From: Promethearchaeota archaeon
Lineage (GTDB): Archaea; Asgardarchaeota; Lokiarchaeia; Sigyniarchaeales; SOKP01
Assembly: GCA_048938895.1 (NCBI GenBank)
Contig: JBHLLU010000045.1
Coordinates: 1 to 24,397, forward strand
Direction: 5' to 3'
Length of the DNA stretch: 24,397 bases
The notes under the pieces were generated by a model, which was not told the DNA's origin, searched no databases, and saw nothing but the letters and a program-made list of their open reading frames with translations. Position numbers and translations under genes: made by a program. Shown here piece after piece: positions 757-14,687 of the stretch (positions are counted from its first letter, which is position 1; each line of letters begins with the position of its first letter).

Positions 757-1269
757 TTAAATAAAACTTATAGCAATTATAATTAGAATTGTATTAATAA
801 TAAAGCCTAAAATGCCCAAAATGTTGCCTGCCTTCAGAATTGAGCTTTCTGCTTCTAGTTTTTTGGCATTTATATAACTTATTCTATTAAAGATTGCAAA
901 AATTATACCTATTGCATGTGCAATAGTTAAACCCATGAATATTCTGCTAGAAGGGGTATAATAATATGAGCTGTCTAAAACAATACTTGATCCAATATTA
1001 AATGATATTATACCAATTACTAGACAGACTATACCAAATCCTAAGCATCGTTTTGAATAAGGATTATAATTCTCTTTTTTAATTTGAGTATGACTTATAC
1101 TTTGATATTGTGGTGGAGTTGTAGATAATGGTTTATAAGGATCTCTTATAGGACTTAATTGAGAGCTATAAGAAATGCTTCTAATTTCTCTTCCACAATT
1201 CTGACAAAATCTCTGATTATCTATCTCAAGTTCTGACCCACAATTTTTACAATACATAATAGTTTTCAA
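757..1269 (-). CDS. Zinc-ribbon membrane protein (N-terminal double CxxC, three C-terminal TM helices)
   Basis: YCKNCG...FCQNCG zinc ribbon, an S/P/Q-rich linker, then three hydrophobic helices. ATG at 1257 (MYCKNCG) is an alternative start to TTG at 1269. Confidence 0.8.
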   Translation of the reverse strand: MKTIMYCKNCGSELEIDNQRFCQNCGREIRSISYSSQLSPIRDPYKPLSTTPPQYQSISHTQIKKENYNPYSKRCLGFGIVCLVIGIISFNIGSSIVLDSSYYYTPSSRIFMGLTIAHAIGIIFAIFNRISYINAKKLEAESSILKAGNILGILGFIINTILIIIAISFI

Positions 1270-1395: not shown

Positions 1396-2871
1396 TTGAA
1401 AAATTATGATGTATTATTCATTCATCCCCCTCGTGTTTTAAATCCAGATCAAAATAAAAGAGGAAAATCTGTAAGAAGTTCATATTTATTTATTCCAATG
1501 GGAGTATTTGCTATAGCTGATTTCCTTGAAAGAGATGGATATGGGGTAAATATTGTAAATTATCCTCTCGAAAAATGCATAAATCCTAGCTGGTCTATAA
1601 GAGAATACCTTAAGTCTATTGATTTTAAAATTTGTGCGATAGACTTACACTGGATACATAATGCTCACGGAGCAATTGTAATTGCTCAAATCGCAAAGGA
1701 ATTAAATCCTCATGCTAAAGTAATACTCGGAGGATTTAGTGCATCATATTTTCATACTCAAATTTTGAAATATTATCGATCAATTGATGGAATAATAAGA
1801 GGAGAAGGAGAGGTACCACTTTTAAAATATGTTCAATGTTTTAACAAGAACCACTCTCTTGATTCTGTTCCAAATTTAACATATCGGAGTGCTTTAAACC
1901 ACATAAAAACTAATCCTCTTTCATATACAGCAAAAACTTTAGATGATTTAAATTTTACAAATTTTTCACTCTTAAAAAATGCTAAACACTACATCGAAGA
2001 TAGTAATAAAATTATGGGAATCTCTGTCAATATTCAAATAGGAAGGGGTTGTCCTTTTAACTGTCCTTTTTGTGGAGGAGGTCAGAGAGCTTTAGAGCAT
2101 TTAGCAGGTCGAAATAAGGTCATTTTGAGGAATCCTGAAAAAGTAGTAAGCGATATTAAATATATTAAAGATAATTATAATGCTAAAAATTTATTTTTTG
2201 GACATGGGGCTTATCCTGCTAATTTAGAATATTGGAGAACCTTATTTAGTTTAATTCAAAAAGAAAATATTGACATAGGGGGAGATCTAGAAATTTGGAG
2301 ATTACCTTTCCCAAAAGAAATGTGGAAAATATTTTCTAAAACCTTTTCTCGTAATTTTTCATCCATATCTATTTCTCCGAGAACATTATCATCTAAAGTT
2401 CATCAAAAAATAGCTAAAATTTGTGATCCAACTTTTAATTTTTCAGAGAATCAAATTAATGACTTAATAAAAAATGCAAATTATTTTCTAAGAACATTAA
2501 GAATTTGGCTTACCGTAGGATATCCTTTCCAAACTAAGAGGGATGTTCAAAAAGATTTTAATTTTGCACTCAAATGCACATTAAAATATGGAAAGTCAAA
2601 TTCAAAACCGATCGCTATTATGAATGAACCTTACCATATTTTCCCCGGTTCTCCTGCATTTGAATCCCCCGAATCTTTTGATATTAAATTGAAGCTAAAC
2701 TCCTTTCCACAACTTGAAAGATTTTTTGAACAGACTAAAATGTCATTTTTCTTTAATGCTTTAAATTATTATACAAAAAATTTTTCTGGGGCATCTATTC
2801 GCACCTTGAATATGCTTTTATTTTTAAATTCAGCACTCACCTTATTTACTACAGGCTCTAAATATTCTTGA
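1396..2871 (+). CDS. Cobalamin(B12)-binding domain radical SAM protein
   Basis: N-terminal B12-binding-like region (PMGVFAIADFL, IDLHW, ILGGFSAS, IIRGEGE) and GRGCPFNCPFC (CxxxCxxC). TTG start. Confidence 0.9.
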   Translation: MKNYDVLFIHPPRVLNPDQNKRGKSVRSSYLFIPMGVFAIADFLERDGYGVNIVNYPLEKCINPSWSIREYLKSIDFKICAIDLHWIHNAHGAIVIAQIAKELNPHAKVILGGFSASYFHTQILKYYRSIDGIIRGEGEVPLLKYVQCFNKNHSLDSVPNLTYRSALNHIKTNPLSYTAKTLDDLNFTNFSLLKNAKHYIEDSNKIMGISVNIQIGRGCPFNCPFCGGGQRALEHLAGRNKVILRNPEKVVSDIKYIKDNYNAKNLFFGHGAYPANLEYWRTLFSLIQKENIDIGGDLEIWRLPFPKEMWKIFSKTFSRNFSSISISPRTLSSKVHQKIAKICDPTFNFSENQINDLIKNANYFLRTLRIWLTVGYPFQTKRDVQKDFNFALKCTLKYGKSNSKPIAIMNEPYHIFPGSPAFESPESFDIKLKLNSFPQLERFFEQTKMSFFFNALNYYTKNFSGASIRTLNMLLFLNSALTLFTTGSKYS

Positions 2872-2957: not shown

Positions 2958-3686
2958 TTGAAAGATACACTATTTAGCAAAATAAAAAGACCTAAATATA
3001 TGAAATCTAGCCAAAAGAATAAAATATTAAAAGATCTATTAATAATCATTATTTTTATTGCGACTATTCCAATTACCTTAGTTTATATGTTTATAAAGGA
3101 TTTTTCAACATTCAATTCTTTTATATATGATTACTTGACTTCCGGTAACTCGTTTTTCTTTCCATTTATTAAATCCGATAATATAATATTCCAATTCTCT
3201 TCGGGTCACTTGATTGACATCATTATTTTTATTAATATCACGGGAATTGTTGAAAGACTCAGTTATCAATATTACATGGCTATTATATTAAAAAATAATT
3301 TTTATGATTTTAGTACAGATTTATATCCTCTTGAATTTAAAGGATCAGAAGAAGAATTATTTCCTCTTTCAGATTTAACAATAAACTTGGAAGAGTGTTC
3401 AAGTATTGCTATGAATTCTAATACTCAAGCTAATTGTTTATTTAAAAAATATCGGTTTCGCTCCATTCAATTATCTGGTAAGAGTAGATATCATTTTAGT
3501 ATTAATCAGATGAAATATCATAGAAGTTGTTTACATAATTATAAATGTGATCAATCCAAAAATAGTTATTCTACATTTAAAGAACTGATAACTAATTTTT
3601 TATTAAATATTTACCTTCCTTCTAAAAATAATAGCATTTCCTCTTCTTTTAATGAAAACAACATACAGAAGGGGGGAATTAAATAA
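2958..3686 (+). CDS. Hypothetical protein with an N-terminal TM helix
   Basis: 242-codon ORF with hydrophobic LLIIIIFIATIPITLVYMF. No motif recognised and composition is low-complexity. ATG at 3000 is an alternative start. Confidence 0.5.
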   Translation: MKDTLFSKIKRPKYMKSSQKNKILKDLLIIIIFIATIPITLVYMFIKDFSTFNSFIYDYLTSGNSFFFPFIKSDNIIFQFSSGHLIDIIIFINITGIVERLSYQYYMAIILKNNFYDFSTDLYPLEFKGSEEELFPLSDLTINLEECSSIAMNSNTQANCLFKKYRFRSIQLSGKSRYHFSINQMKYHRSCLHNYKCDQSKNSYSTFKELITNFLLNIYLPSKNNSISSSFNENNIQKGGIK

Positions 3687-3766
3687 TGAAATATTACTTT
3701 TCTACAAATTTTATTATAACACAAAAATCTAAACTTTTTTCTAATGGAACTTATAAAAAAAGATGA
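3686..3766 (+). CDS. Candidate 26-aa small ORF MKYYFSTNFIITQKSKLFSNGTYKKR
   Basis: Its ATG overlaps the upstream stop (TAATG) and follows GGGGGGAATT at 3671-3680. Its TGA overlaps the ATG at 3763 (ATGA). Too short for the ORF track; no homology support. Confidence 0.3.
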   Translation: MKYYFSTNFIITQKSKLFSNGTYKKR

Positions 3767-5139
3767 ATAAGATGGAATGGAATAAAGAAATTGAAGATTT
3801 GTTTCAAAAAATAACTGATTTAACCCCTGACGCATTTCGACCTTCGGTTAAACCAATGCTGCGTGAAGCTTCTGAAAAGACAGCTCGGTTACGAAATTCT
3901 GGTTTTATTAGTAAAGATGATTTATTATCTGCTTTATTTGAGATAACCCCAGAAGCGTTTCAACCGACTGTTGTGGAAGATTTGAAAACAATCGGAATTG
4001 ATTCAACACGATATATTCAATTATCATCAATTAGGAAAGAATATGCAAGAACTTGGGATGAGATTGGAGCTGCATTTCTTCCTGGTGTTTATCATTTTAC
4101 TATTTATCTAACAGATAGATGCAATCAAAAATGCCAACATTGTGCTGCGGGAATCATGGATCATCGCCCAGAGTTATCAACAGAACAATGGATAAAGATT
4201 ATTGAGAATGTTGAACAAACTCTGCGAAAAATTGGGCGGCGTGGGTGTTATATTTGGTTTGGAGGTGAACCTACTCTCCGAAAAGATCTGAAAGATCTAA
4301 TAAAATACTGCGGAGAGAAGGGTTATTATCAAGCTATATCTACAAATGGTATGCTGTATGATGAGGAACTGGCAAAACTATGTGCAGAAGTTAAAATGAG
4401 TCATACTTTTATTAGCTATGACAGTGTTTATCCAGAGAGGGCTGCAAAAATTCGAGGTGTACCAAACGCATATGAAGCTGCTGAGAAAGCAATTAAACTA
4501 GCGTTGAAATACGGACATTTTGTTATTTGTACAGAGACAGTTCAAAAAGATAATTTTGATGAGATTGATAAAATAAAAGAAAAATTAGAATCCATGGGAA
4601 TAATTCCTTATTTCCGAGCAATTATAAAACAAAGAACAGCAGATATTAATTGGGATGAAATTGGATTATCTCATGATGAATATGTCCAATTTTATAATTT
4701 TAAGTATAAGAATGTCGTAGATGCAATCAGAAAAGGTGAGGGTTCTTCTCTTAACAAATTTTATACTTATGACATGGTTCCATTTATGGAATGTCCTGTA
4801 AATGATAAAGAACGAACTGCTCTCGAATGGGGTGTAGGATGTCAAGCGTGTCGCTCAGTTTCGGGTATTGATGTTAATGGGGATTTTTTTCCTTGTGATT
4901 ATCCTTCAAATTTAACATTGGGTAATGTTCTAGAACAACCATTTGAAGTAATTATGGAATCTGAAATGTTTAAAGCCATAAGAGATCGTAAAATAAAAGG
5001 TAGATGCTCAACTTGCCATCACCTTGAATTATGCGGTGGTGGTTGTCGCGTGCACGCCGAGAATATAACTGGAGATTTTCTTGAATCTCTTCCTTTTTGT
5101 TGGCATGATGATGACCATCAACATGACATAAATGCATAA
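3763..5139 (+). CDS. Radical SAM/SPASM protein (NirJ/AhbC/D/PqqE-like) with N-terminal DUF2621/PCP_red-like module
   Basis: TDRCNQKCQHC (CxxxCxxC), FGGEPTLR, ISTNG; SPASM cysteines GCQAC...GDFFPC...CSTCHHLELCGGGCR...PFCW. The start may be ATG 3772 (MEW), by analogy with the neighbouring genes. Confidence 0.93.
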   Translation: MNKMEWNKEIEDLFQKITDLTPDAFRPSVKPMLREASEKTARLRNSGFISKDDLLSALFEITPEAFQPTVVEDLKTIGIDSTRYIQLSSIRKEYARTWDEIGAAFLPGVYHFTIYLTDRCNQKCQHCAAGIMDHRPELSTEQWIKIIENVEQTLRKIGRRGCYIWFGGEPTLRKDLKDLIKYCGEKGYYQAISTNGMLYDEELAKLCAEVKMSHTFISYDSVYPERAAKIRGVPNAYEAAEKAIKLALKYGHFVICTETVQKDNFDEIDKIKEKLESMGIIPYFRAIIKQRTADINWDEIGLSHDEYVQFYNFKYKNVVDAIRKGEGSSLNKFYTYDMVPFMECPVNDKERTALEWGVGCQACRSVSGIDVNGDFFPCDYPSNLTLGNVLEQPFEVIMESEMFKAIRDRKIKGRCSTCHHLELCGGGCRVHAENITGDFLESLPFCWHDDDHQHDINA

Positions 5140-5140
5140 C

Positions 5141-5148
5141 GGGGAATT
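5141..5148 (+). promoter_or_regulatory. Putative Shine-Dalgarno-like site (GGGGAATT) before the second radical SAM
   Basis: GGGGA at 5141-5145, 5 nt before ATG 5151. Confidence 0.45.
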
Positions 5149-5150
5149 TT

Positions 5151-6551
5151 ATGGAATGGGAAGAAGAAACTAAAGGATTGTTTAAGAGAATAGTAGAGCA
5201 AATGCCACAGGGATTTCGACCATCTGTTGAACCTATGATTGTTAAAGCTGCTGAGAAGAGATGTCTTGAAAGAAATGGTGCCTATATTAATGATGCTGAT
5301 GTGGTTACAGGAATTTTTGACATTATTCCAGAGGTATTTAAACCTATTATGATAGAAGATTTAAAATCACTAAATATTGATGTAGAACGATATATTGAGC
5401 TAAAAGAACTAAAGGATAGACTTAAAGTTTCATGGGAAAAACTTGAAAGAGGCTTTCATCCTGGAAACATTCATTTTGCTCTATATGTAACAGATAGATG
5501 TAATCAAAAATGTCTTCACTGCGCTGCTGATGATCACATACCGAGGCCAGAATTATCAACAAAACAATGGTGTCAAATCATAGAAAACTTAGAAACTGGT
5601 TTACGAAAACAAGGAAGACATGGATGTTACGTTTGGTTTGGAGGGGAGCCAACATTACGCAGTGATATCGGTGAAATCATGAAATTTTGTAATGATAAAG
5701 ACTACATCCACGCTCTAATCACAAACGGTGTAAACTTTAATGATAAATTCGCTAAAATGTGCAAGGAAAATAATATCAGTCATATATTTATCAGTTTTGA
5801 TAGTGCTGATCCTAAGAAAAATGATAAAATTCGCGGATTTCCTAATTCTTTAGATTATGCACATAAAGCAATTAATCTATGCTTAAAATATGGGATCTTT
5901 GTTTGTTCTTCAATTACTGTAATGAAACAAAATATTAATGAGTTAGAAGAGCTAAAATCCCTATCAGAAAAATGGGGTTCACAACCATATTTTAGATGTG
6001 TAGTAAAACAAAATCGAGCTGCTGAATATTGGGATGAAATTGGGCTTAGTACAGAAGAATATAAGAAAATGTATGATTTCAAATATAAACATGCAGTTGA
6101 GACAATAAGAATAGGCAACGCTGGTACTCTACCTGCTTATGAAATTTACGATATGGTACCCTTTATGGAACAACCTAAAAATGACAAAGAATTGACTGCT
6201 ATTGAATGGGGTGTGGGATGTTTAGCTTGTAGAACGATGATGGGTATCGGTATAGACGGTACAATATACCCTGCAGGATATCCTACAACTTTAACACTTG
6301 GTAATGCTTTAAAAGATAATTTTGAGGATGTTCTTAATTCTCAGCTCTATAAAGACATTCGTGATAGAAAAAAGATAACAGGAAAATGTGCTTCTTGTCA
6401 CCATCTAAAATACTGCGGTGGAGGATGTCGAGTGACAGCAGAATATATTACAGGCGACTTTTTTGGGTCGTTTCCATTTTGTTGGCATGAAATGGATCAT
6501 GTTCATGAAGTTGAACTTGTTGAAAAAGAAGAAATTGGTTTAATCGAATAA
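5151..6551 (+). CDS. Radical SAM/SPASM protein, tandem paralogue of 3763..5139, with N-terminal DUF2621/PCP_red-like module
   Basis: TDRCNQKCLHC, FGGEPTLR, ITNG, GCLAC, CASCHHLKYCGGGCR, PFCW. Collinear with the upstream paralogue over its full length. Confidence 0.93.
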   Translation: MEWEEETKGLFKRIVEQMPQGFRPSVEPMIVKAAEKRCLERNGAYINDADVVTGIFDIIPEVFKPIMIEDLKSLNIDVERYIELKELKDRLKVSWEKLERGFHPGNIHFALYVTDRCNQKCLHCAADDHIPRPELSTKQWCQIIENLETGLRKQGRHGCYVWFGGEPTLRSDIGEIMKFCNDKDYIHALITNGVNFNDKFAKMCKENNISHIFISFDSADPKKNDKIRGFPNSLDYAHKAINLCLKYGIFVCSSITVMKQNINELEELKSLSEKWGSQPYFRCVVKQNRAAEYWDEIGLSTEEYKKMYDFKYKHAVETIRIGNAGTLPAYEIYDMVPFMEQPKNDKELTAIEWGVGCLACRTMMGIGIDGTIYPAGYPTTLTLGNALKDNFEDVLNSQLYKDIRDRKKITGKCASCHHLKYCGGGCRVTAEYITGDFFGSFPFCWHEMDHVHEVELVEKEEIGLIE

Positions 6552-6610
6552 AGGATTTGCTGAATTGAGTCAAAAGGAAATATCAAAATTAAAAAGAGTT
6601 TAATAAGAAA

Positions 6611-7777
6611 ATGGAATGGCAATCAAAAATTAAACAATTGTATGAAGATATGGTCTCGAAGATTCCAGAGATGGTAAGACCTGTTATAAAACCTATGCTT
6701 CTTGAAAAATCAGAAAAAAAATGCATTGAACGAAATGGAAAAAGCATTACTGAAATGGATTTGGTAGTGGCATTATTTGAGGTTACACCTCCAGCATTTC
6801 AACCAACCATGATTAAAGATTTGAAAGCACTGGGGGTTGATCTTGATTTATATCTACCGAAAGTGAATTCTGATTTTAAACTTAAAAATGATCTGAATCA
6901 AATGGTTAAAGATATTCATACTCTATGCAACCTTACTGGTGTAAATTTTAATGAAGAAGCTATTTGGAGAGGTCTCAATGCTTATAAAAAATTTTATTCC
7001 GGTTCCTCTCTATCCATTAGAACCACAACCAAACCAGTTGAAAAAAGAGATATTTCTGTAAGATATGTAGAAATGATGATCCCTCATAACCCTGATCCTT
7101 ATACAATCGCTCTCAGGGAAGGATTGATTAAAAAAAATGGTCATCCAATTCATAAAATGATATTAGAAGCATTCGATACGTTTGATATGATGGGTTATGG
7201 TGTGGATATTGATGCTAGAAAAGGACTCTCGAAAATATGGCCTTTTATTATACCGGGATCAATTGAACCCCTCTTTTCAATGAAATTCATACCTGAAACT
7301 ATCAAAAAATATGAGAGTTATTTCAAAAACCATAAATTGACAACATTAGCACTCTTCGCTTTTGATTTTTTACACAATACCACAAATATCTACTTCATGT
7401 TAAAGGATCCCTCAACGACAACTAATGATAAATGCAGAAGGCTTATAGAAGATTTAGGTTTCAGAGTTCCATCAGAAGAATTATTGAATTATTGTAGGAA
7501 TGCAGTGCATCTTAATTATACCTTTAGTTGGGATTCTGAAAAAATCGAACGACTATGCTTCGGTGTAGCATGTCATAATGCTAGGGAAGTTCCTATTCAT
7601 CTTCATCCTTTAATGCAAAAATTTATTAAGGGATCTCCTTTCCAAAGTGAAGTCCATAAGTTTATTTACGGTATTACTTTCACACCAGATGGTCTTTATT
7701 ACAAGATCGAAAATGATTATAATGGAACTATGGTAGATTTCTTGCTAATGGGCGCAAAAGCAGGATTAGCATTTTAA
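6611..7777 (+). CDS. ABBA-family soluble aromatic prenyltransferase (NphB/CloQ/Orf2-like PT-barrel) with N-terminal DUF2621/PCP_red-like module
   Basis: Segments match PTase_Orf2 family patterns in the expected order: SIRTTT..RDISVRY, NPDPY, GYGVDIDARKGLSKIWPF, AFDFLHNTTNIYF, YTFSWDSEKIERLCF, FIYGITFTPDGLYYKIENDY (compare NphB GGFKKTYAF, MDYKKRQVNLYF, TLNWETGKIDRLCF, YGLTLS...YYKL, recalled from memory). Confidence 0.85.
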   Translation: MEWQSKIKQLYEDMVSKIPEMVRPVIKPMLLEKSEKKCIERNGKSITEMDLVVALFEVTPPAFQPTMIKDLKALGVDLDLYLPKVNSDFKLKNDLNQMVKDIHTLCNLTGVNFNEEAIWRGLNAYKKFYSGSSLSIRTTTKPVEKRDISVRYVEMMIPHNPDPYTIALREGLIKKNGHPIHKMILEAFDTFDMMGYGVDIDARKGLSKIWPFIIPGSIEPLFSMKFIPETIKKYESYFKNHKLTTLALFAFDFLHNTTNIYFMLKDPSTTTNDKCRRLIEDLGFRVPSEELLNYCRNAVHLNYTFSWDSEKIERLCFGVACHNAREVPIHLHPLMQKFIKGSPFQSEVHKFIYGITFTPDGLYYKIENDYNGTMVDFLLMGAKAGLAF

Positions 7778-7832
7778 AAATTATTTTTTAATGATTATAA
7801 AAAAAAAATACAAAAATAAAATATTTAAAAAA

Positions 7833-7839
7833 AGGAGGT
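7833..7839 (+). promoter_or_regulatory. Shine-Dalgarno site AGGAGGT for the SCP2 gene
   Basis: Near-perfect SD 10 nt upstream of ATG 7850. Confidence 0.65.
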
Positions 7840-7849
7840 AAAAAATAAA

Positions 7850-8239
7850 ATGGATACAAGAGAAGAATGGGAAGCATATCTTGATAACTTCATGAGAGCA
7901 TACAATGAATTACCCGAATTATCAGCGCTATTAAAGCCAATAGCGCCATTAGTTTTCCAATACAAAATTAATGATCGTCCCGAGATGGACTATTGGCAAT
8001 ATATCGAAGAAGATAAAATGAACTGGGGAATGGGTGAATATACTGGTCCCGATGTACCAAAAGTTATTCATAAAACGAGTTTTGAAGTTATTAAGAAAGT
8101 GAATTCGGGAGAGACGAATCCTATTGAAGCAACAATGGCTGGGACTTATGATGTTGATGGAGACCCTTCTAAACTCATGGCATGTGCACCATTATTACCA
8201 CTTAATGCAAAAGCTCATGAAAAAGCTATTCAAAAGTAA
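7850..8239 (+). CDS. SCP2 (sterol carrier protein 2-like) lipid-binding domain protein
   Basis: 129 aa; C-terminal signature SGETNPIEATMAGTYDVDGDPSKLM matches the SCP2 pattern G.l.p..Afm.Gk.kv.GD..k.m. Strong SD. Confidence 0.8.
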   Translation: MDTREEWEAYLDNFMRAYNELPELSALLKPIAPLVFQYKINDRPEMDYWQYIEEDKMNWGMGEYTGPDVPKVIHKTSFEVIKKVNSGETNPIEATMAGTYDVDGDPSKLMACAPLLPLNAKAHEKAIQK

Positions 8240-8255
8240 AAATAAGGTGAGATAG

Positions 8256-9662
8256 ATTAATTTACACGTAGCTACAAACTGGGATTTAGTCCTTATAGAT
8301 GAAATTGCCCAATATCCCGTCAGTGATTTATATGGTGTAGCAGATCATACAATTATAGGAGGGGGTCGTCCCTCGTTCTTACTACAGAAAGTAACTGACG
8401 AATTTATTGCAGAATATATAAAAAAATTGGATCAAAAAGATATTGGTTTTTCATATCTATTAAATGCTCCATGTATGAATAATATGGAATATGATTCACA
8501 CTATCATAAAGAAATCCTTAAATATCTGGAGTGGATTAGCAATATTGGAGCAAATAGTGTTACGGTGACGATTCCATTTCTTATACAGCTTATTAAAGAA
8601 CAATTTCCTAAATTAAAAATAAGAGTTTCTACAATCGCTCATGTTAATAGTGTTAATCGTGCAAAATTCTATGAAATGCTGGGAGCAGATGAAATTACTC
8701 TCGATGTAATGATTAATCGCGATTTTAAAACATTAGAACATATTCAAAAAGCAGTAAAGTGTAAAATTATAGTCCTCTTAACTGATGGATGCTTATACCA
8801 ATGTCCATTTCGATATTATCATTATAATACGCTGGGGCATGCTTCACAAACATATCAACAGTTTGAACGCAATTATATTGATACATGTATCTTAAACTGT
8901 AGCACTATTAAATTCTCAGATCCAACAGAGGTCATTAAGGCAAGATGGATTCGACCAGAAGATTTATCGCATTATGAAGCAATTGGAATTGATAATTTTA
9001 AAATAGCTGGGCGTCGCATGTCAACGGAATGGATTGCTAGGTCTGTAAAAGCTTTCTCTTCCCGAAGATATGATGGAAATCTTATCGATATAATTCAAGG
9101 ATTCTCTATGTCTTTTGGGGGATTAGAACAAAAAGATCCAAATATGAAATTAACAGAAACAGTAAAGAAAGAGTCAAAAGCAAAATTAATAATTGATAAT
9201 ACGAAATTGGATGGTTTTATTGACTTTTTTAAAACACAGAATTGCTTAGCAATGTGTAATGAATGTAATTATTGTGATGAGTGGGCAAAAAAAGCAATAG
9301 AAGTTAATGAAGAAGAATCTCAACGATATGTAGAATCGATAAAACAGTATATGAATGATATTTTAACTAGCCGTGAATTTGGTGTTGAGTCAGTTAAGTC
9401 AAAAGAAATAGAAAAAACGGGTTTAGATTGGGATAGTGAAACAAAAAGATTATTTAATGAACTTATTAAGTTATCACCACCTCAATTTCAGCAGATGGCA
9501 AGAATGGCTATTTCTTCACTTGCAGAAGAAAAAGCACATAAGAGAGATTCATATATTGTTGAAAATCAGGATATAATAAACGCGTTTATAGAAGGAACTC
9601 CAGGACCATTTCAAGCTGATATGAGAGACGGACTTAAAAAATATGGTTTATTGGACAAATAA
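8256..9662 (+). CDS. U32 'peptidase' family Fe-S protein (superfamily of UbiU/UbiV/TrhP/RlhA) with C-terminal DUF2621/PCP_red-like module; probable ATT start
   Basis: In-frame extension upstream of the ORF-track start gives INLHVATNWD...LYG...GGGRPS...FSYLLNAPC, a typical N-terminus for this U32 subgroup. Also GCLYQCP, CILNC, WIRPEDL, FKIAGR, CLAMCNECNYC. SD GGTGAG at 8246-8251. Confidence 0.85.
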   Translation: MNLHVATNWDLVLIDEIAQYPVSDLYGVADHTIIGGGRPSFLLQKVTDEFIAEYIKKLDQKDIGFSYLLNAPCMNNMEYDSHYHKEILKYLEWISNIGANSVTVTIPFLIQLIKEQFPKLKIRVSTIAHVNSVNRAKFYEMLGADEITLDVMINRDFKTLEHIQKAVKCKIIVLLTDGCLYQCPFRYYHYNTLGHASQTYQQFERNYIDTCILNCSTIKFSDPTEVIKARWIRPEDLSHYEAIGIDNFKIAGRRMSTEWIARSVKAFSSRRYDGNLIDIIQGFSMSFGGLEQKDPNMKLTETVKKESKAKLIIDNTKLDGFIDFFKTQNCLAMCNECNYCDEWAKKAIEVNEEESQRYVESIKQYMNDILTSREFGVESVKSKEIEKTGLDWDSETKRLFNELIKLSPPQFQQMARMAISSLAEEKAHKRDSYIVENQDIINAFIEGTPGPFQADMRDGLKKYGLLDK

Positions 9663-9703: not shown

Positions 9704-11005
9704 TTAATAAACCCAGTTAATTAAAGAAGAACAACTTTTTCCTTGAGCATTTTTCAATCTCCCTATAATACGAAAGGTAGCTCCTGCATAACCACATTCC
9801 GGGCATTTAGTTTTCGAGACTAAATCAATTATATCGTCAACTAATACCGCTTGATTTATTGTACCATTAACACCATAAGGAGTAAGTACTTCCAAGAGTC
9901 CTTCTTCTCCTTTAGTAACTGGCTCCAAGTTTTCAAGGTCTCTAACAATTATTCTAGAAGTATCGGGACAATGGAGTAGGAAATCTTGATATTTTTCAGA
10001 CCAATGACCCCCAAATAGAGTTGGTCCTTCTGTAAAAGCATAAATATCCGCAAAATCTTTAGGTTTAATATTAAAGACTTTTTCATAATTTTCAAGAAAC
10101 TTCACTTTACTCACTTTGCCCATCTTCGCTTCACCTTTAACTCCATCCCATCCACCACCACCACAATTGACAGTAGCTTTTCCATCAAGATCAAAAAAAA
10201 TATTTTCTTTTAATAATCTTCTCTCAAACATATTATTCATTAAAAGAGGACTTCCACCAAAGATTATTTTACTTACTTCTACGTCTTTCCAGTGACCTTT
10301 TTTTAAGATGATCTCAATCATCTTTAGCATTTTACTAACATCTAGTACAAATCCTCCTCGTATTGAAAAAGTCGAAATTATAGCCCATATTGTTTTTAAA
10401 ATTTTGAATTTTACCATATATTCTTCATGTCCATAATATTCCCATGGTTTATTCATGCATGCTGTGAAATAACGAGTTTTATTGACAAATTCAAATCCCT
10501 TTGCATTCCGTTTAGCCATTAATGACATAAATAAGCGATCTGGTGCAAAATTAAAAACTAAACATTGCTTAGAGTCTTGTTTTAAATCCCTCCAACCAAA
10601 AAATTCTGTAAAAACTTTGATTGAGTTATACTGTATTTGATCAAAATCTTTTAAAGTTCGAGGAACTATTGATGGATCTCCTGTAGTAGAGGATGAGCAT
10701 GAAAAAAGAACAATTTCATTAAGAGGAACCTTGAGTAATTGAAGATTATTGTTTGCGGATTTTTTATAGGCTTCTGTTGGAATAAATGGGATTTGATTTA
10801 AATTATCAATAGTTAACTCTTCTGGAACTGTAAACTTAAAATTTTTACAGAGTTTATCCTTATAATAATTACAATTCTTATAAGATAGTATAACTTGTTC
10901 TAGGAGATCCTTACAAAATATATCATCTGAGTAATCTCGTGGAGCAAAATCAAAATATTTTGTTCTTAACTCATCAGGTAAATGATCGTGGAATTTTAAC
11001 AACAT
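9704..11005 (-). CDS. LuxE-like acyl-protein synthetase (ANL/PaaK-related)
   Basis: IPFIPTEAYK, SSSTTGDPS (adenylation P-loop), GGGWDG, DIYAFTE, EEGLLEVLTPY, DDII, CPECG..FRIIGRLKNAQGKSCS (C-terminal acylation-site Cys typical of LuxE). Confidence 0.82.
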   Translation of the reverse strand: MLLKFHDHLPDELRTKYFDFAPRDYSDDIFCKDLLEQVILSYKNCNYYKDKLCKNFKFTVPEELTIDNLNQIPFIPTEAYKKSANNNLQLLKVPLNEIVLFSCSSSTTGDPSIVPRTLKDFDQIQYNSIKVFTEFFGWRDLKQDSKQCLVFNFAPDRLFMSLMAKRNAKGFEFVNKTRYFTACMNKPWEYYGHEEYMVKFKILKTIWAIISTFSIRGGFVLDVSKMLKMIEIILKKGHWKDVEVSKIIFGGSPLLMNNMFERRLLKENIFFDLDGKATVNCGGGGWDGVKGEAKMGKVSKVKFLENYEKVFNIKPKDFADIYAFTEGPTLFGGHWSEKYQDFLLHCPDTSRIIVRDLENLEPVTKGEEGLLEVLTPYGVNGTINQAVLVDDIIDLVSKTKCPECGYAGATFRIIGRLKNAQGKSCSSLINWVY

Positions 11006-11072: not shown

Positions 11073-12425
11073 TTATTTTACTGATAAAGCTTTAATTTCT
11101 TCTTCTTGTTTTTCCAAAATCATAGGTGTTTTTTCCCAGCTAATCTCTTTTGGAAGTTTGAATTGTCGTAAAAACATATAAAGATGGATAAACCCGCTTA
11201 TGAGAAAATACAGTAAAATACTATAATGACCATCACCATATTTCCGTACAGCATTAAATAAAAATCCAAATTGAAAGATTAAACAGGAAAGTGTCCAAGT
11301 TAACAAATACCATTCTCTAGTTAGAATTTGTAATATTGCAAATAATATTACAATCGGGATCCATGTGTCTAGGTTACCTATGAACGTCATTGTCATATTC
11401 CTCGAAATTATTATTGATTTTCCACTTTTTTCTTCACTATCCATAGACATTAACTTTGGCATATCAAAAATATAACCTGCAAGCCAACGAGTTCGCTGTT
11501 TTACCAGAATTTCCCATTTTGTAGGGACATATTCAGAGACCCTTGCTTTTGGTGAAAAAAATATGTTTATCCCGTCTAAATTTAGTAATACAGAAAGGTA
11601 AAGATCCTCTGTCATTGAATCCTCATTAAAACCCCCATATTTTTGGAGTTGTTCAGTACTAATAGCAAAATTTCTCCCAAATGCATAAGCCGAGGATCCT
11701 AATCTATTTTTTGTTTCAAATAAGATGCCTCCACCAGAAATTGTGGCATAATCAAGGTAAATACCTTTAGTTAATTTGTTAATTTTCCAATTTTCTACTA
11801 AAACAGGGCCTATAACAGCCTTTATCCTATCATCTTGAAAAGGAGCAATTAAATTTCTTAGTGTATTTGATTCTAAAATGCATCCTGAATCATAGAGTAC
11901 GACAATATCATTCTTTACATGTTTTAATCCATAATTCAAGGCAGGAGGTTTTCCTTTTTTAGGAAGATTATCAGATAGTACCTCTATGTCCATCATACCA
12001 TTTTCATTAGCAAATTTTTTTGAAAATTCAGTTGTATCGTCTGTTGATCCGCTTGTAATTATTATAATCTGGATGTTTTCCTTAGGATAATTTGATTTAA
12101 GAATAGAATTTAGTGTTCTCTCTAATAATATCTTTTCATTTTTAGAAGCAATTAATATACTAAGTTTTGCATTATATTCTCTCTTAACTCTATATCCCCT
12201 ACCAAAAGATGCCAAGAAATGTATTCCATAATATACTACAAATCCTATTAACATTATTAAACCGATTAGGGGGAAAATAAAGACCCAATTGGTTAGTGGA
12301 TCAAGAATAAAACGATTCAGGGCTCTCTTTACTCCTGATGAAAAAATTGGTGGGAGGTACATATGTAAAAGAACAAAAAATGCGACGCATACAGATCCAT
12401 ATAATAATAGTCTTGACAATTTCAT
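11073..12425 (-). CDS. Membrane-integrated glycosyltransferase family 2 (QxxRW type)
   Basis: SILIASKNE, SGSTDDT, GKPPALN, TEDL and QRTRW motifs, with N- and C-terminal TM helices. Confidence 0.9.
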   Translation of the reverse strand: MKLSRLLLYGSVCVAFFVLLHMYLPPIFSSGVKRALNRFILDPLTNWVFIFPLIGLIMLIGFVVYYGIHFLASFGRGYRVKREYNAKLSILIASKNEKILLERTLNSILKSNYPKENIQIIIITSGSTDDTTEFSKKFANENGMMDIEVLSDNLPKKGKPPALNYGLKHVKNDIVVLYDSGCILESNTLRNLIAPFQDDRIKAVIGPVLVENWKINKLTKGIYLDYATISGGGILFETKNRLGSSAYAFGRNFAISTEQLQKYGGFNEDSMTEDLYLSVLLNLDGINIFFSPKARVSEYVPTKWEILVKQRTRWLAGYIFDMPKLMSMDSEEKSGKSIIISRNMTMTFIGNLDTWIPIVILFAILQILTREWYLLTWTLSCLIFQFGFLFNAVRKYGDGHYSILLYFLISGFIHLYMFLRQFKLPKEISWEKTPMILEKQEEEIKALSVK

Positions 12426-12442: not shown

Positions 12443-13375
12443 CTACTTTTCATTATCCATTTTCTTTAGATTTTTCCATATATATTTTCCAAATCCTATC
12501 ACAGAATATATCATAATAGCTAGTAAAGTGATCTGAAAAATAAACATACACCATGTAGTTATTCCAGTATGCGAGGATTCCCAGATTGCAGCGGCATCGG
12601 GATTTATTAGACTTGTAAGAAGTACTGTTAGGCTTGAAACACCGTAAATCGCAAAAAAAGTAGCAATTATCAATATTCGCGTAATTCTTTCCCCGATAAA
12701 GGGTTTTGTTTCATGCAAACCTAAACCTTCATGTCTAGCCCTCATATATTCATAGAGGAATATTATAAAAATATTCGTCCATATCATCCATTTGAAATCA
12801 TATTTGCTACCAGATAGAATTGAAAACCCTGTAGGAATTAAACATACCAACATTAATGTATCGCTGACTCTATCAATAATATTATCGAACCATGCTCCAC
12901 TTTTTGACTTTTTATCTAGTAACCTTGCGATAGCACCATCTATCCCATCGATCAATCCTGTAAATAAAACCAATAAAGCGAATATTACAAACCAGAACCC
13001 AAAAATAGGCTGTTCAGTAAGAATATCCAATGTATGCCCGAGTCCTGCTACTAACACCCCATAAAATATAAAAAGTGAAAAGATCAAATTCATTATAGAC
13101 ACTTTATTTGGGCTCAATCCCCATTTTATAAAGACTTTTGCACCCTTATAGGTTAATGGCATATATATTAAACCTGCTGGATCCTTTTTCATTTGGGCAA
13201 ATTGTTCTTCTACTTTATGAGCTTGTCCATGATCTCTAAGCCAATCCTTTATAAAGTCATCACAACTCATAAAATCCTGTTCTGCCCTTCTATTAGGTCT
13301 TCCGCTTATTAGAATTACTATAAGAAAAATCAATAAGATTATTGGAAATCCAATTATAAATATTAACTCTAGCAT
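12443..13375 (-). CDS. CDP-alcohol phosphatidyltransferase family protein
   Basis: SPNKVS and the signature DGIDGAIAR-x7-SGAWFDNIIDR; multiple TM helices. Confidence 0.92.
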   Translation of the reverse strand: MLELIFIIGFPIILLIFLIVILISGRPNRRAEQDFMSCDDFIKDWLRDHGQAHKVEEQFAQMKKDPAGLIYMPLTYKGAKVFIKWGLSPNKVSIMNLIFSLFIFYGVLVAGLGHTLDILTEQPIFGFWFVIFALLVLFTGLIDGIDGAIARLLDKKSKSGAWFDNIIDRVSDTLMLVCLIPTGFSILSGSKYDFKWMIWTNIFIIFLYEYMRARHEGLGLHETKPFIGERITRILIIATFFAIYGVSSLTVLLTSLINPDAAAIWESSHTGITTWCMFIFQITLLAIMIYSVIGFGKYIWKNLKKMDNEK

Positions 13376-13547: not shown

Positions 13548-14687
13548 TTAAAATACTTGATAGGCTTCTTTAATAGCTGAACACCCACCACAACGAACGC
13601 ATCCCGCTTTACTTTTTAATGGATTTACTCCATACTCTCTCATTAATTCACCGCTTCTCTCGTATATTTCCAACAAGTCATAATAGTTAGTTAAAGGTAA
13701 ATCACGCTTTCCAGGGATTGCTCTCACTGGTGTTATGTAAGGAATGACTCCTAATGAAATAAGATTTTCTATATCCTTAAGAAAATTTTCTTTATCCTCC
13801 CCAAATCCAGTTAAAACATAACTACTTACTTGATTTTCTCCAAATATATTTATCGCATGTTTCCAATTTTCTTCAAAAAGTTGATAAGAAAGGTGAAATT
13901 TACCAGGAGTAATATCTCTTCTTAAATCTTCATTGAGGATTTCAATATGGATGCCTATTGTATCTGCTCCTGCTTCTTTTAACTTATCAAAATAATCTAA
14001 ATCTTCTAATGCTTCAATTTGTATATGCAATGGGAGATTAGGATGATCTTCCTTAATCCCCTTTAATAATTCAATATACCGCTTTGCTCCTTTATCAATA
14101 GATTGGTCTGTACCACTTGTTAAAGTCATATGAGCACATCTTCCTTCCTTTTTAGCAGTAGTAATGACTTCAGACATCTGCTTTGCATTCTTTTCTTCGA
14201 TGGTTGAGTCATTTTGTAAACTTACTTCAATACCACAAAAAGAACATGCTTCCCCGCACGCCCAGTATACACATTTTTGATATATTGTACTGGCCAAGCA
14301 ATCTATACCATGAACCAAAGCAATTTTTTTCATAGGGATACCATCTGAAGTTTTATATTCTGGGCTATAATAAAGAGGATTTTGAATCAACTTTAGTTTT
14401 CCAAACAAAGCGTTACTCTTTTTGTTAAAAACTTCGAAAAATCCATCCTTATTTTCTTTTAGGAACAGATCTGTTTTTTCTGGGCTATTCCATAATGCAA
14501 TATTAACAAGAGTAGAATTATCCTCTAATAGAAAATATCTACCTCCAGACGGTCCAGCACCTCCTTTTCGACCATAGTCAATAAAAATCCCTTGATTCTT
14601 ATAATGATCGATTAATTCCTCATCAAGATATAGTCCACTGCAGAGTAATTTGGTCTTTTGCCTTAGAGCGGTTTCTTTACTTATCAT
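13548..14687 (-). CDS. Radical SAM protein, MSMEG_0568/NitD-like family
   Basis: GRKGGAGPSG near the N-terminus, HGIDCLASTIYQKCVYWACGEACSFC, LTSGT, GIHIE, and C-terminal KAGCVRCGGCS. Confidence 0.8.
   Translation of the reverse strand: MISKETALRQKTKLLCSGLYLDEELIDHYKNQGIFIDYGRKGGAGPSGGRYFLLEDNSTLVNIALWNSPEKTDLFLKENKDGFFEVFNKKSNALFGKLKLIQNPLYYSPEYKTSDGIPMKKIALVHGIDCLASTIYQKCVYWACGEACSFCGIEVSLQNDSTIEEKNAKQMSEVITTAKKEGRCAHMTLTSGTDQSIDKGAKRYIELLKGIKEDHPNLPLHIQIEALEDLDYFDKLKEAGADTIGIHIEILNEDLRRDITPGKFHLSYQLFEENWKHAINIFGENQVSSYVLTGFGEDKENFLKDIENLISLGVIPYITPVRAIPGKRDLPLTNYYDLLEIYERSGELMREYGVNPLKSKAGCVRCGGCSAIKEAYQVF

Follow-up and report, generated by a model that had tools for sequence, protein, structure and literature searches.

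A module shared by four proteins of an Asgard archaeal operon, plausibly a docking tag around an SCP2 protein

Some gene clusters equip several of their enzymes with a common accessory domain for recognition or docking. One such domain, the RRE (RiPP recognition element; RiPP, ribosomally synthesized and post-translationally modified peptide), folds as a winged helix with a beta-sheet that pairs with the leader peptide. Another small domain, PCP_red, is the C-terminal domain of the DPOR subunit BchB/ChlB. The system described here belongs to the same general kind of cluster-wide recognition or docking domains. It lies in a stretch of 24,397 nucleotides from a Promethearchaeota archaeon (contig JBHLLU010000045.1; the window), where a module of ~77-80 amino acids (aa) is joined to two radical S-adenosylmethionine (SAM) enzymes, named rSAM1 and rSAM2, an aromatic prenyltransferase and a U32-family protein of one operon. 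Sequence comparison presents this module as a mobile, non-catalytic and strongly constrained domain that is common to several enzymes of one pathway and recurrently joined to SCP2, the fold of a lipid-binding protein encoded in the same operon. The module probably connects the enzymes with a common partner or substrate, and a role as a docking tag around SCP2 is plausible.

The nearest functional precedent comes from ubiquinone synthesis. In the excerpts of PMC6747719, SCP2 proteins are proposed to hold intermediates and to organise the enzymes of the pathway. The same excerpts link SCP2 to U32 hydroxylases, including through a ubiT-ubiU gene fusion, and give the cysteine spacing of these hydroxylases as CX6CX15-16CX3/4(38)C. 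For the present arrangement, the first-pass annotation of the window, a model's reading of the sequence, knew of no described counterpart. Searches of full-text literature, subscription-only papers aside, agree with it: among the papers listed, there is no description of U32, SCP2, prenyltransferase and radical SAM proteins arranged around a shared module or of an Asgard ABBA-SCP2 cluster, and nothing relevant on DUF2621, PCP_red or PF08369.

The module and its fold

The module occupies the N-termini of rSAM1, rSAM2 and the prenyltransferase and the C-terminus of the U32 protein, as seen in the translations and a MAFFT alignment (A1). Its four copies have 76-77 residues in common without a gap, and W3, L10, P19, E35, R41, D50, P60, F63, L71 and K72 are invariant. 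The first-pass annotation had described an ungapped four-copy module with ten invariant residues; A1 reproduces it to the residue, and the coordinates given for the copies are correct (Table 1). Relative to the rSAM1 copy, identity is 45 % for the rSAM2 copy, 46 % for the prenyltransferase copy and 27 % for the U32 copy. Chance does not account for this similarity: pairwise BLASTP among the four gives E-values of 4e-30 to 1e-10, and ungapped identities are 34, 37 and 21 of 77, while in 10,000 shuffles they average 5 and never exceed 16-17. Searched against the 4.65-Mb genome, a four-copy profile finds strong matches in these copies alone.

The same annotation took the module for a mobile unit distinct from any catalytic fold. 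Domain boundaries in Pfam place it outside the catalytic domains in every window host. Solved ABBA prenyltransferases (~290-310 aa) fill ~280-300 columns of the 388-aa model of the window enzyme, so the module is absent from them. The switch between termini extends even into the prenyltransferase family, in which a Helarchaeota locus (L033) and two further proteins (P0017, P0020) carry the module at the C-terminus. The SCP2 protein of the window is untagged according to Pfam, also as claimed. Elsewhere in the genome, a sulfatase-like open reading frame (ORF; contig C101, 23925-25601, minus strand, 559-aa open frame) has a weak C-terminal match of ~70 aa to the module profile (E 0.019-0.08); this stretch could represent a fifth copy that has diverged strongly, or chance.

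A resemblance to DUF2621 (PF11084) and PCP_red (PF08369) had likewise been noted, and several lines of comparison uphold it. When the copies are scanned alone, only one of the four, that of the U32 protein, reaches the curated DUF2621 cut-off of 27.7 bits. The matches cover positions 48/57 to 115/137 of the 139-position profile, whose first ~50 positions have no counterpart in the module. PCP_red has no match to the four copies at E <= 10 and none in the whole genome at E <= 1. When 1.84 billion representatives were searched exhaustively with the profile, 235 clusters matched at E <= 1e-3. A 60-member alignment (A2), built with 56 short homologs, keeps W3, P19, D50 and P60 nearly invariant, and at E <= 0.01 its members match DUF2621 in 46 cases and PCP_red in 20, the PCP_red matches all being sub-threshold (best 7.1e-07). 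Through these transitive, mostly sub-threshold links, the module is placed in the DUF2621/PCP_red superfamily. Its look-alikes in the ESM Atlas are bacterial DUF2621 proteins of 85-89 aa from Omnitrophota and Bacillota.

An AlphaFold2 model of the rSAM2-type module (pLDDT 94.6) contains helices at residues 5-16, 20-40, 48-58 and 61-73 and, besides these, only two 2-residue bridges. Across 95 Asgard modules, W3, P19, E35, R41, D50, P60, F63 and L71 are conserved in at least 90 %. Because no cysteine or histidine is among the conserved residues, a catalytic or metal-binding role is unlikely. The type-specific differences between modules fall mostly at core-like positions. Profiles and model together identify the module as a DUF2621/PCP_red superfamily domain of ~80 aa, predicted to be four-helical and non-catalytic.

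Structural comparison with VIA-align pairs the model with the PCP_red nuclear magnetic resonance (NMR) structure 2kru at Z 5.5 over 60 residues (rank 46 of 48,161 chains) and with the stand-alone protein 2l09 at Z 6.5, both within the chance range for helical bundles. The top matches are AAA+ lid subdomains, with 2dzn_B at Z 8.5 and a root-mean-square deviation (rmsd) of 1.7 A over 57 residues; MCM, ORC and BchI reach Z ~8, in the range reported for unrelated helical bundles. An AAA+ lid identity was rejected, given that Pfam finds no ATPase domain in any window host and that Z <= 8.5 is at chance level. Foldseek returned nothing from the PDB at E <= 0.001, and its best matches, histone H2B chains (E 0.23, rmsd 7-8 A), were discarded. 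A PDB sequence search with the A2 profile gave nothing below E 0.17; the stretches of purine nucleoside phosphorylase, histone-fold and Lon proteins that it listed are chance-level matches.

Conservation and fusion partners

The comparative set comprises 26 loci, 24 of them on contigs titled as Asgard metagenome-assembled genomes (Promethearchaeota, Thor-, Hel- and Hermodarchaeota) and two labelled uncultured archaeon. Three loci duplicate L013-L015 and are included in the ORF counts and identity medians. A recurrent gene order runs through a B12-binding radical SAM enzyme, a membrane protein, rSAM1, rSAM2, in some cases a further B12-binding radical SAM enzyme, the prenyltransferase, SCP2 and U32. 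The module is present on all prenyltransferases (22/22) and all rSAM1 proteins (21/21), on 20 of the 22 ORFs labelled rSAM2 and on 24 of the 30 U32 ORFs. Of the ORFs labelled rSAM2, the two without a module show weak similarity and lie on the opposite strand; among the untagged U32 ORFs, five occupy the first position of a U32 pair and the sixth is truncated by the end of its locus. Since the tagged hosts are kept across these loci, homologous clusters do not routinely lack the module, and the docking proposal of the first-pass annotation came through this comparative check.

In a maximum-likelihood tree computed from 95 distinct modules, copies cluster according to the type of their host, and those of the U32 type form a deep branch. 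The tree needs 4 changes of host label, compared with a minimum of 3 and a mean of 52.2 for shuffled labels (0 of 200 shuffles as low as 4). This grouping indicates that the fusions are old and that the copies have not been homogenised within genomes. Median identities to the window orthologs for module and catalytic part are 67 and 63.5 % in the prenyltransferase, 78.5 and 79 % in rSAM1, 80 and 84.5 % in rSAM2, and 70 and 72.5 % in U32. The module is thus as strongly constrained as the catalytic domains, and the four stretches are anciently diverged paralogs, each of which has long been joined to its own host protein within a single conserved Asgard operon.

Across genomes, the distribution of the module is patchy. 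It was found in 3 of 24 same-genus genomes and in 27 of 301 genomes of a phylum sample; 22 of these 27 belong to the window's own family, where 68 genomes were sampled. Module matches per genome range from 2 to 10 in the phylum sample. Two genomes of the window's family, G069 and G218, have 8-10 matches on two or more contigs, a spread which indicates that the cluster itself is duplicated there.

Host architectures were counted in the 150 best representatives of the profile search. Nine are radical SAM enzymes with an N-terminal module, and one further protein is arranged as LuxC-module-rSAM (P0054). Prenyltransferases carry the module at the N-terminus in 15 cases and at the C-terminus in the 2 cases given above, 23 U32 proteins carry it C-terminally or internally, and 2 SCP2 proteins have it. 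Short partnerless proteins (<= 120 aa) account for 69 representatives and other proteins for 10. The 19 matching proteins that measure at least 650 aa, in which as many as 10 stretches match, look like tandem arrays and were taken as tetratricopeptide repeat (TPR) false positives, judged from P0022, P0045 and P0058. P0058 has TPR_10/TPR_12 matches in Pfam, P0022 and P0045 also have TPR repeats by sequence, and a 'PDAFRP' turn recurs. Module profiles cross-match TPR_10/TPR_12 through such a helix-turn, which makes it a trap for automated domain censuses. Public annotation of module proteins is limited to 'radical SAM protein', 'U32 family peptidase' and 'hypothetical'.

Further fusions identified with Pfam join the module to a SAM methyltransferase, to a PNPOx-like domain and to HpaB_C, which precedes it, and two modules precede a thioredoxin-like [2Fe-2S] ferredoxin. 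Tandem double modules are found in L036 (U32-module-module) and P0117. Several fusions include SCP2 itself: L040 encodes SCP2-module-prenyltransferase, L041 and L043 encode U32-module-SCP2, P0034 is U32-module-SCP2x3-module, and P0104 and P0038 have SCP2 followed by the module. In a second layout, seen in 5 of the 26 loci (L025, L035, L037, L041, L043), the gene of an untagged U32 protein of 381-400 aa is directly followed by that of a long tagged one. The latter is the 668-687-aa U32-module-SCP2 protein in L041 and L043, and its frame is cut at the locus end in L025, L035 and L037. No separate SCP2 was detected in 4 of these 5 paired-U32 loci; L043 has separate SCP2 genes. Among untagged proteins, three ORFs are candidates, by local phmmer, for an rSAM-SPASM-SCP2 architecture (L028 13876-15384; L040 6553-8064, 504 aa; L043 557-2098, 514 aa).

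The bacterial stand-alone homologs are real small genes, as judged from 19 metagenome loci. Their identified neighbours (10 ORFs in 6 of the 19 loci) are unrelated to one another and to the genes of the Asgard operon: SDR, methyltransferase, VIT1, TMEM14, PKD, RecQ, Bro-N, PFK and UvrD.

The enzymes of the operon

In the window, the plus-strand operon is tightly packed, with intergenic gaps of 11-90 nt (Table 1). The convergent genes downstream of it also accompany the U32-module gene in distant relatives, according to synteny.

Table 1. Module copies, their host genes and neighbouring genes in the window
Feature	Position	Strand	Basis and remarks
Module copy 1, rSAM1 type	3772..4002	+	Alignment A1; four-copy profile E 1.6e-38; DUF2621 14.3 bits scanned alone
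Module copy 2, rSAM2 type	5151..5381	+	Alignment A1; DUF2621 26.1 bits; AlphaFold2 model
Module copy 3, prenyltransferase type	6611..6841	+	Alignment A1; DUF2621 25.5 bits
Module copy 4, U32 type, most divergent	9423..9659	+	Alignment A1; DUF2621 30.8 bits scanned alone
B12-binding radical SAM enzyme, first gene of conserved operon	1396..2871	+	Pfam; NCBIfam TIGR04190-like
Membrane protein, conserved operon position	2958..3686	+	Hydrophobic N-terminal region conserved, C-terminal tail fast-evolving
rSAM1: module + Radical_SAM + SPASM	3763..5139	+	Pfam, NCBIfam
rSAM2, paralog of rSAM1: module + Radical_SAM + SPASM	5151..6551	+	Pfam, NCBIfam
ABBA (Orf2-type) aromatic prenyltransferase, N-terminal module	6611..7777	+	PTase_Orf2 E 1.5e-52, residues 94-378
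SCP2-fold lipid-binding protein, untagged	7850..8239	+	Pfam SCP2
U32-family protein, 468 aa, C-terminal module	8256..9662	+	Pfam Peptidase_U32
LuxE-like adenylating enzyme	9704..11005	-	Pfam, NCBIfam, synteny
GT2 glycosyltransferase	11073..12425	-	Pfam, NCBIfam, synteny
CDP-alcohol phosphatidyltransferase	12443..13375	-	Pfam, NCBIfam, synteny
MSMEG_0568-family radical SAM	13548..14687	-	Pfam, NCBIfam, synteny

Both rSAM1 and rSAM2 score above the Pfam cut-offs for Radical_SAM and SPASM, and their translations display the CX3CX2C motif (CNQKCQHC and CNQKCLHC). The two types are ~50-51 % identical, judged against orthologs. Their closest curated NCBIfam families are AhbD/AhbC/NirJ, with E-values of 1e-38 to 1e-41 that lie far below the cut-offs of these families.

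The prenyltransferase passes PTase_Orf2 at 179 bits against a cut-off of 22. Its AlphaFold2 model (388 aa, built from a 29-sequence alignment, pLDDT 92.7, pTM 0.88) has an ABBA barrel. In Foldseek, its best matches are AmbP3, FamD1 and AmbP1 (E ~1e-29, 29-32 % identity), AmbP3 aligning at E 9.5e-30 with a TM score of 0.91 normalised to the target. EpzP, NphB/Orf2 and CloQ follow, so that small-molecule ABBA enzymes span E 1e-29 to 1e-20. The peptide prenyltransferases PagF and PatF match at E ~2e-5 only. From its model, the enzyme looks like those acting on small molecules (indole, phenazine, naphthalene). The SCP2 protein is highly conserved, with a mean column identity of 78 % over 14 orthologs (alignment A3).

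The frame of the U32 gene is conserved from the first codon following a stop, and no ATG, GTG or TTG stands at the conserved N-terminus. Of 19 orthologs, 16 have an ATT or ATA codon at a distance of 5-8 nt behind AGGTGA, which suggests a non-AUG start; the others have ATG (L014), GTT (L031) or a different arrangement (L018). In the window, the ATT at 8256 follows AGGTGA by 5 nt (8247-8258), and the gene most likely starts at this codon, not at the TTG 8427 chosen by the ORF lister. Such a conserved start perhaps serves translational control. ORF callers shorten the gene to TTG 8427. Two cysteine motifs mark the protein: CX3CX27CX3C (8790-8900) and, between the U32 core and the module, CX3CX2CX2C (9243-9275). 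Of 32 U32 ORFs, 19 have CX3C-X(20-35)-CX3C and 22 have CX3CX2CX2C; neither is present in the paired-U32 type.

Neither Pfam nor NCBIfam assigns the membrane protein of the operon to a family. Between genomes in which the adjacent genes share 63-88 % identity, this protein shares 29-41 %, and its C-terminal tail aligns poorly. Multi-pass membrane proteins with Zn ribbons flank many of the clusters (window 757-1269, minus strand; L026 14104-16040; L042 2746-3995), and L026 has up to three tandem paralogs of them after the U32 gene.

Proposed role and comparison with known systems

A possible reading, preferred here tentatively and by analogy, is that the module serves as an adaptor to a partner common to the pathway. 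Every soluble tailoring enzyme would carry it as a mounted surface for contact with this partner. In full clusters, the partner would most likely be the SCP2 protein, carrying a hydrophobic, prenylated aromatic intermediate that is handed from enzyme to enzyme without release. The same logic is proposed, in the excerpts of PMC6747719, for UbiJ/UbiT and the enzymes of ubiquinone synthesis, among them the U32 hydroxylases UbiU/UbiV. The adaptor reading is favoured by natural fusions that put the module between SCP2 and an enzyme (L040, L041, L043, P0034), by its fusion to non-enzymes (SCP2, ferredoxin) and to other tailoring enzymes, and by its presence at either terminus of the prenyltransferase. 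A bolder version, in which an undescribed prenylated aromatic lipid, maybe a membrane cofactor that resembles a quinone, a phenazine or an indole and is formed without O2, would be built on a soluble assembly with a PCP_red-like domain addressing the enzymes to SCP2, is doubtful.

Several observations weigh against an adaptor to SCP2. Some proteins of the clusters are never tagged: the B12-binding radical SAM enzymes (0/37), the membrane protein (0/17), and the LuxE-like (0/3), GT2 (0/5) and CDP-alcohol transferase (0/3) proteins. In three genomes from other families of the same order (G026, G027, G029; 66-88 % complete), U32-module is the sole module protein and adjoins LuxE-like, GT2 and CDP-alcohol transferase genes. 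These three assemblies have no orthologous SCP2, and two of them contain weak SCP2-like matches (E ~5e-4) on other contigs, which suggests that the U32-type module works there without either proposed partner. A Pfam-confirmed rSAM-SPASM-SCP2 protein (L028 12258-13844) dispenses with the module. The unrelated neighbours of the bacterial homologs imply that the module family as a whole is not tied to SCP2. In the full-length prenyltransferase model, finally, there is no floppy linker (linker block pLDDT 82; for pTM, see above), which suggests that the module is packed or mounted on its own enzyme and is not a loose tether. This fits an adaptor and a cis-acting lid equally. A complex prediction for SCP2 (A3) with the U32-type module (A4) scored 0.01 and 0.00, where the mark is 0.32, and is evidence neither way.

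Such a lid or gate, the main rival of the adaptor, in which the module would pack on its own catalytic domain and close or shape the entrance for one and the same hydrophobic aromatic substrate, is rather unlikely. The pTM of the prenyltransferase model exceeds the ~0.79 roughly estimated here for a free 82-aa domain, the modules co-diverge with their hosts in type and rate, and most hosts act on hydrophobic aromatic substrates (prenyltransferase, U32, HpaB_C, methyltransferase). The persistence of U32-module by itself in the three genomes without orthologous SCP2 would also suit a lid, as would the fixed place of PCP_red within its DPOR subunit. The SCP2 and ferredoxin hosts, however, offer no active site to cap, tandem double modules (L036, P0117) and many stand-alone module proteins exist, and either terminus of the prenyltransferase can carry the module. 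Homo- or heterotypic binding of modules to each other, building a multi-enzyme complex, is improbable. Clusters with several differently tagged proteins, the 2 to 10 matches per genome and the tandems in U32-module-module and module-module-ferredoxin would agree with such assembly, and the host-type-specific clades could encode pairing specificity. Against this stand genomes with a single module-bearing protein and the structures of the relatives 2kru and 2l09, listed as single-chain solution NMR structures and thus presumably monomeric. Net charge is acidic in all four module types and in SCP2, so that neither different module types nor a module and SCP2 have complementary charges.

Two further proposals are far less probable. 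That the module docks a ferredoxin or flavodoxin, as donor or acceptor of electrons for the Fe-S and flavin hosts, is very unlikely: many hosts are redox proteins (rSAM-SPASM, U32 with cysteine motifs, PNPOx-like, HpaB_C) and one module-module-[2Fe-2S] ferredoxin fusion exists, yet the prenyltransferase, SAM methyltransferase and SCP2 carry the module and need no electrons, while the B12-binding radical SAM enzymes of the operon need reduction and never have it. Recognition of a polypeptide substrate in the manner of an RRE is hardly to be expected either. The RRE pattern is that of a small domain occurring alone or on enzymes of several classes, among others at the N-terminus of rSAM-SPASM proteins, and the operon's membrane protein, fixed in position and with its fast-evolving tail, would be the candidate substrate. 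The prenyltransferase is nevertheless near small-molecule ABBA enzymes and far from PagF/PatF, and the best radical SAM matches are to AhbD/AhbC/NirJ, which modify tetrapyrroles and are not peptide maturases. In addition, a lipid-binding SCP2 protein belongs to the operon, helices make up nearly all of the module model, which bears no resemblance to a winged helix, and no small precursor ORF would fit into the intergenic gaps. The Zn-ribbon proteins were rejected as RiPP precursors because they are multi-pass membrane proteins.

The DUF2621/PCP_red family has no assigned function, although it occurs on an enzyme of chlorophyll biosynthesis and in many small bacterial proteins. Four host-specific, constrained paralogs beside SCP2, together with the natural fusions, make the operon unusually well suited to tests of what the module binds. 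If the module does address enzymes to SCP2, this would be the first function for DUF2621/PCP_red, including the unexplained C-terminal domain of DPOR. A lipid-carrier adaptor would give small-molecule pathways their equivalent of RRE or docking domains and a new mode of organisation, analogous to the RRE for peptides, and it would extend the idea of an SCP2-centred 'metabolon' from ubiquinone synthesis to archaea. An operon that combines a small-molecule ABBA prenyltransferase, a U32 Fe-S protein, SPASM and B12-binding radical SAM enzymes suggests that the closest archaeal relatives of eukaryotes make a prenylated aromatic compound yet to be characterised. Interest in the system is moderately high because it gives direct access both to what an orphan domain family does and to an Asgard metabolite.

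Among known systems, AAA+ lids supply the best structural matches of the module but are accompanied by a P-loop ATPase core, which is not adjacent here. Docking domains of polyketide synthases and nonribosomal peptide synthetases and the dockerin-cohesin pair are also short, non-catalytic terminal modules, of the sort that would gather pathway proteins; the present module differs in that it looks mounted on its host instead of tethered, and no cognate partner module is known. The RRE (PqqD-like) resembles it in layout, as a domain of ~80-90 aa that occurs alone or on different enzyme classes of one cluster. It differs in fold, the module model being four-helical with no Pfam PqqD match to the module copies or hosts, and in context, since the present cluster has no evident precursor peptide and its enzymes look directed at small molecules.

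DUF2621 and PCP_red share with the module its size, its helical make-up and the pattern W...P..(F)R...AE..A..R....V...D..A...TP..F. The window copies score around or under the DUF2621 cut-off, and their matches span part of its profile. PCP_red has a different host, the nitrogenase-like B subunit of DPOR instead of rSAM-SPASM, ABBA prenyltransferase and U32 proteins, and the excerpts of papers on DPOR do not discuss its role. Unlike in either family, several paralogous copies occur here within one operon.

The Ubi system is close in logic and differs in its parts. UbiU and UbiV are two paralogs that form a heterodimer, whereas the window genome has a single U32 protein, with the cysteine spacing CX3CX27CX3C and an extra CX3CX2CX2C motif. 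The prenyltransferase here is of the soluble ABBA type, not UbiA, and the excerpts of PMC6747719 mention no PCP_red-like domain for Ubi proteins. In both systems, SCP2 and U32 proteins accompany prenyl-aromatic chemistry: in the window, the SCP2 gene directly adjoins the U32 gene, and the two are fused in relatives. The adjacent U32 pair of 5 of the 26 Asgard loci recalls UbiU/UbiV, with a UbiT-like SCP2 fused on in L041 and L043.

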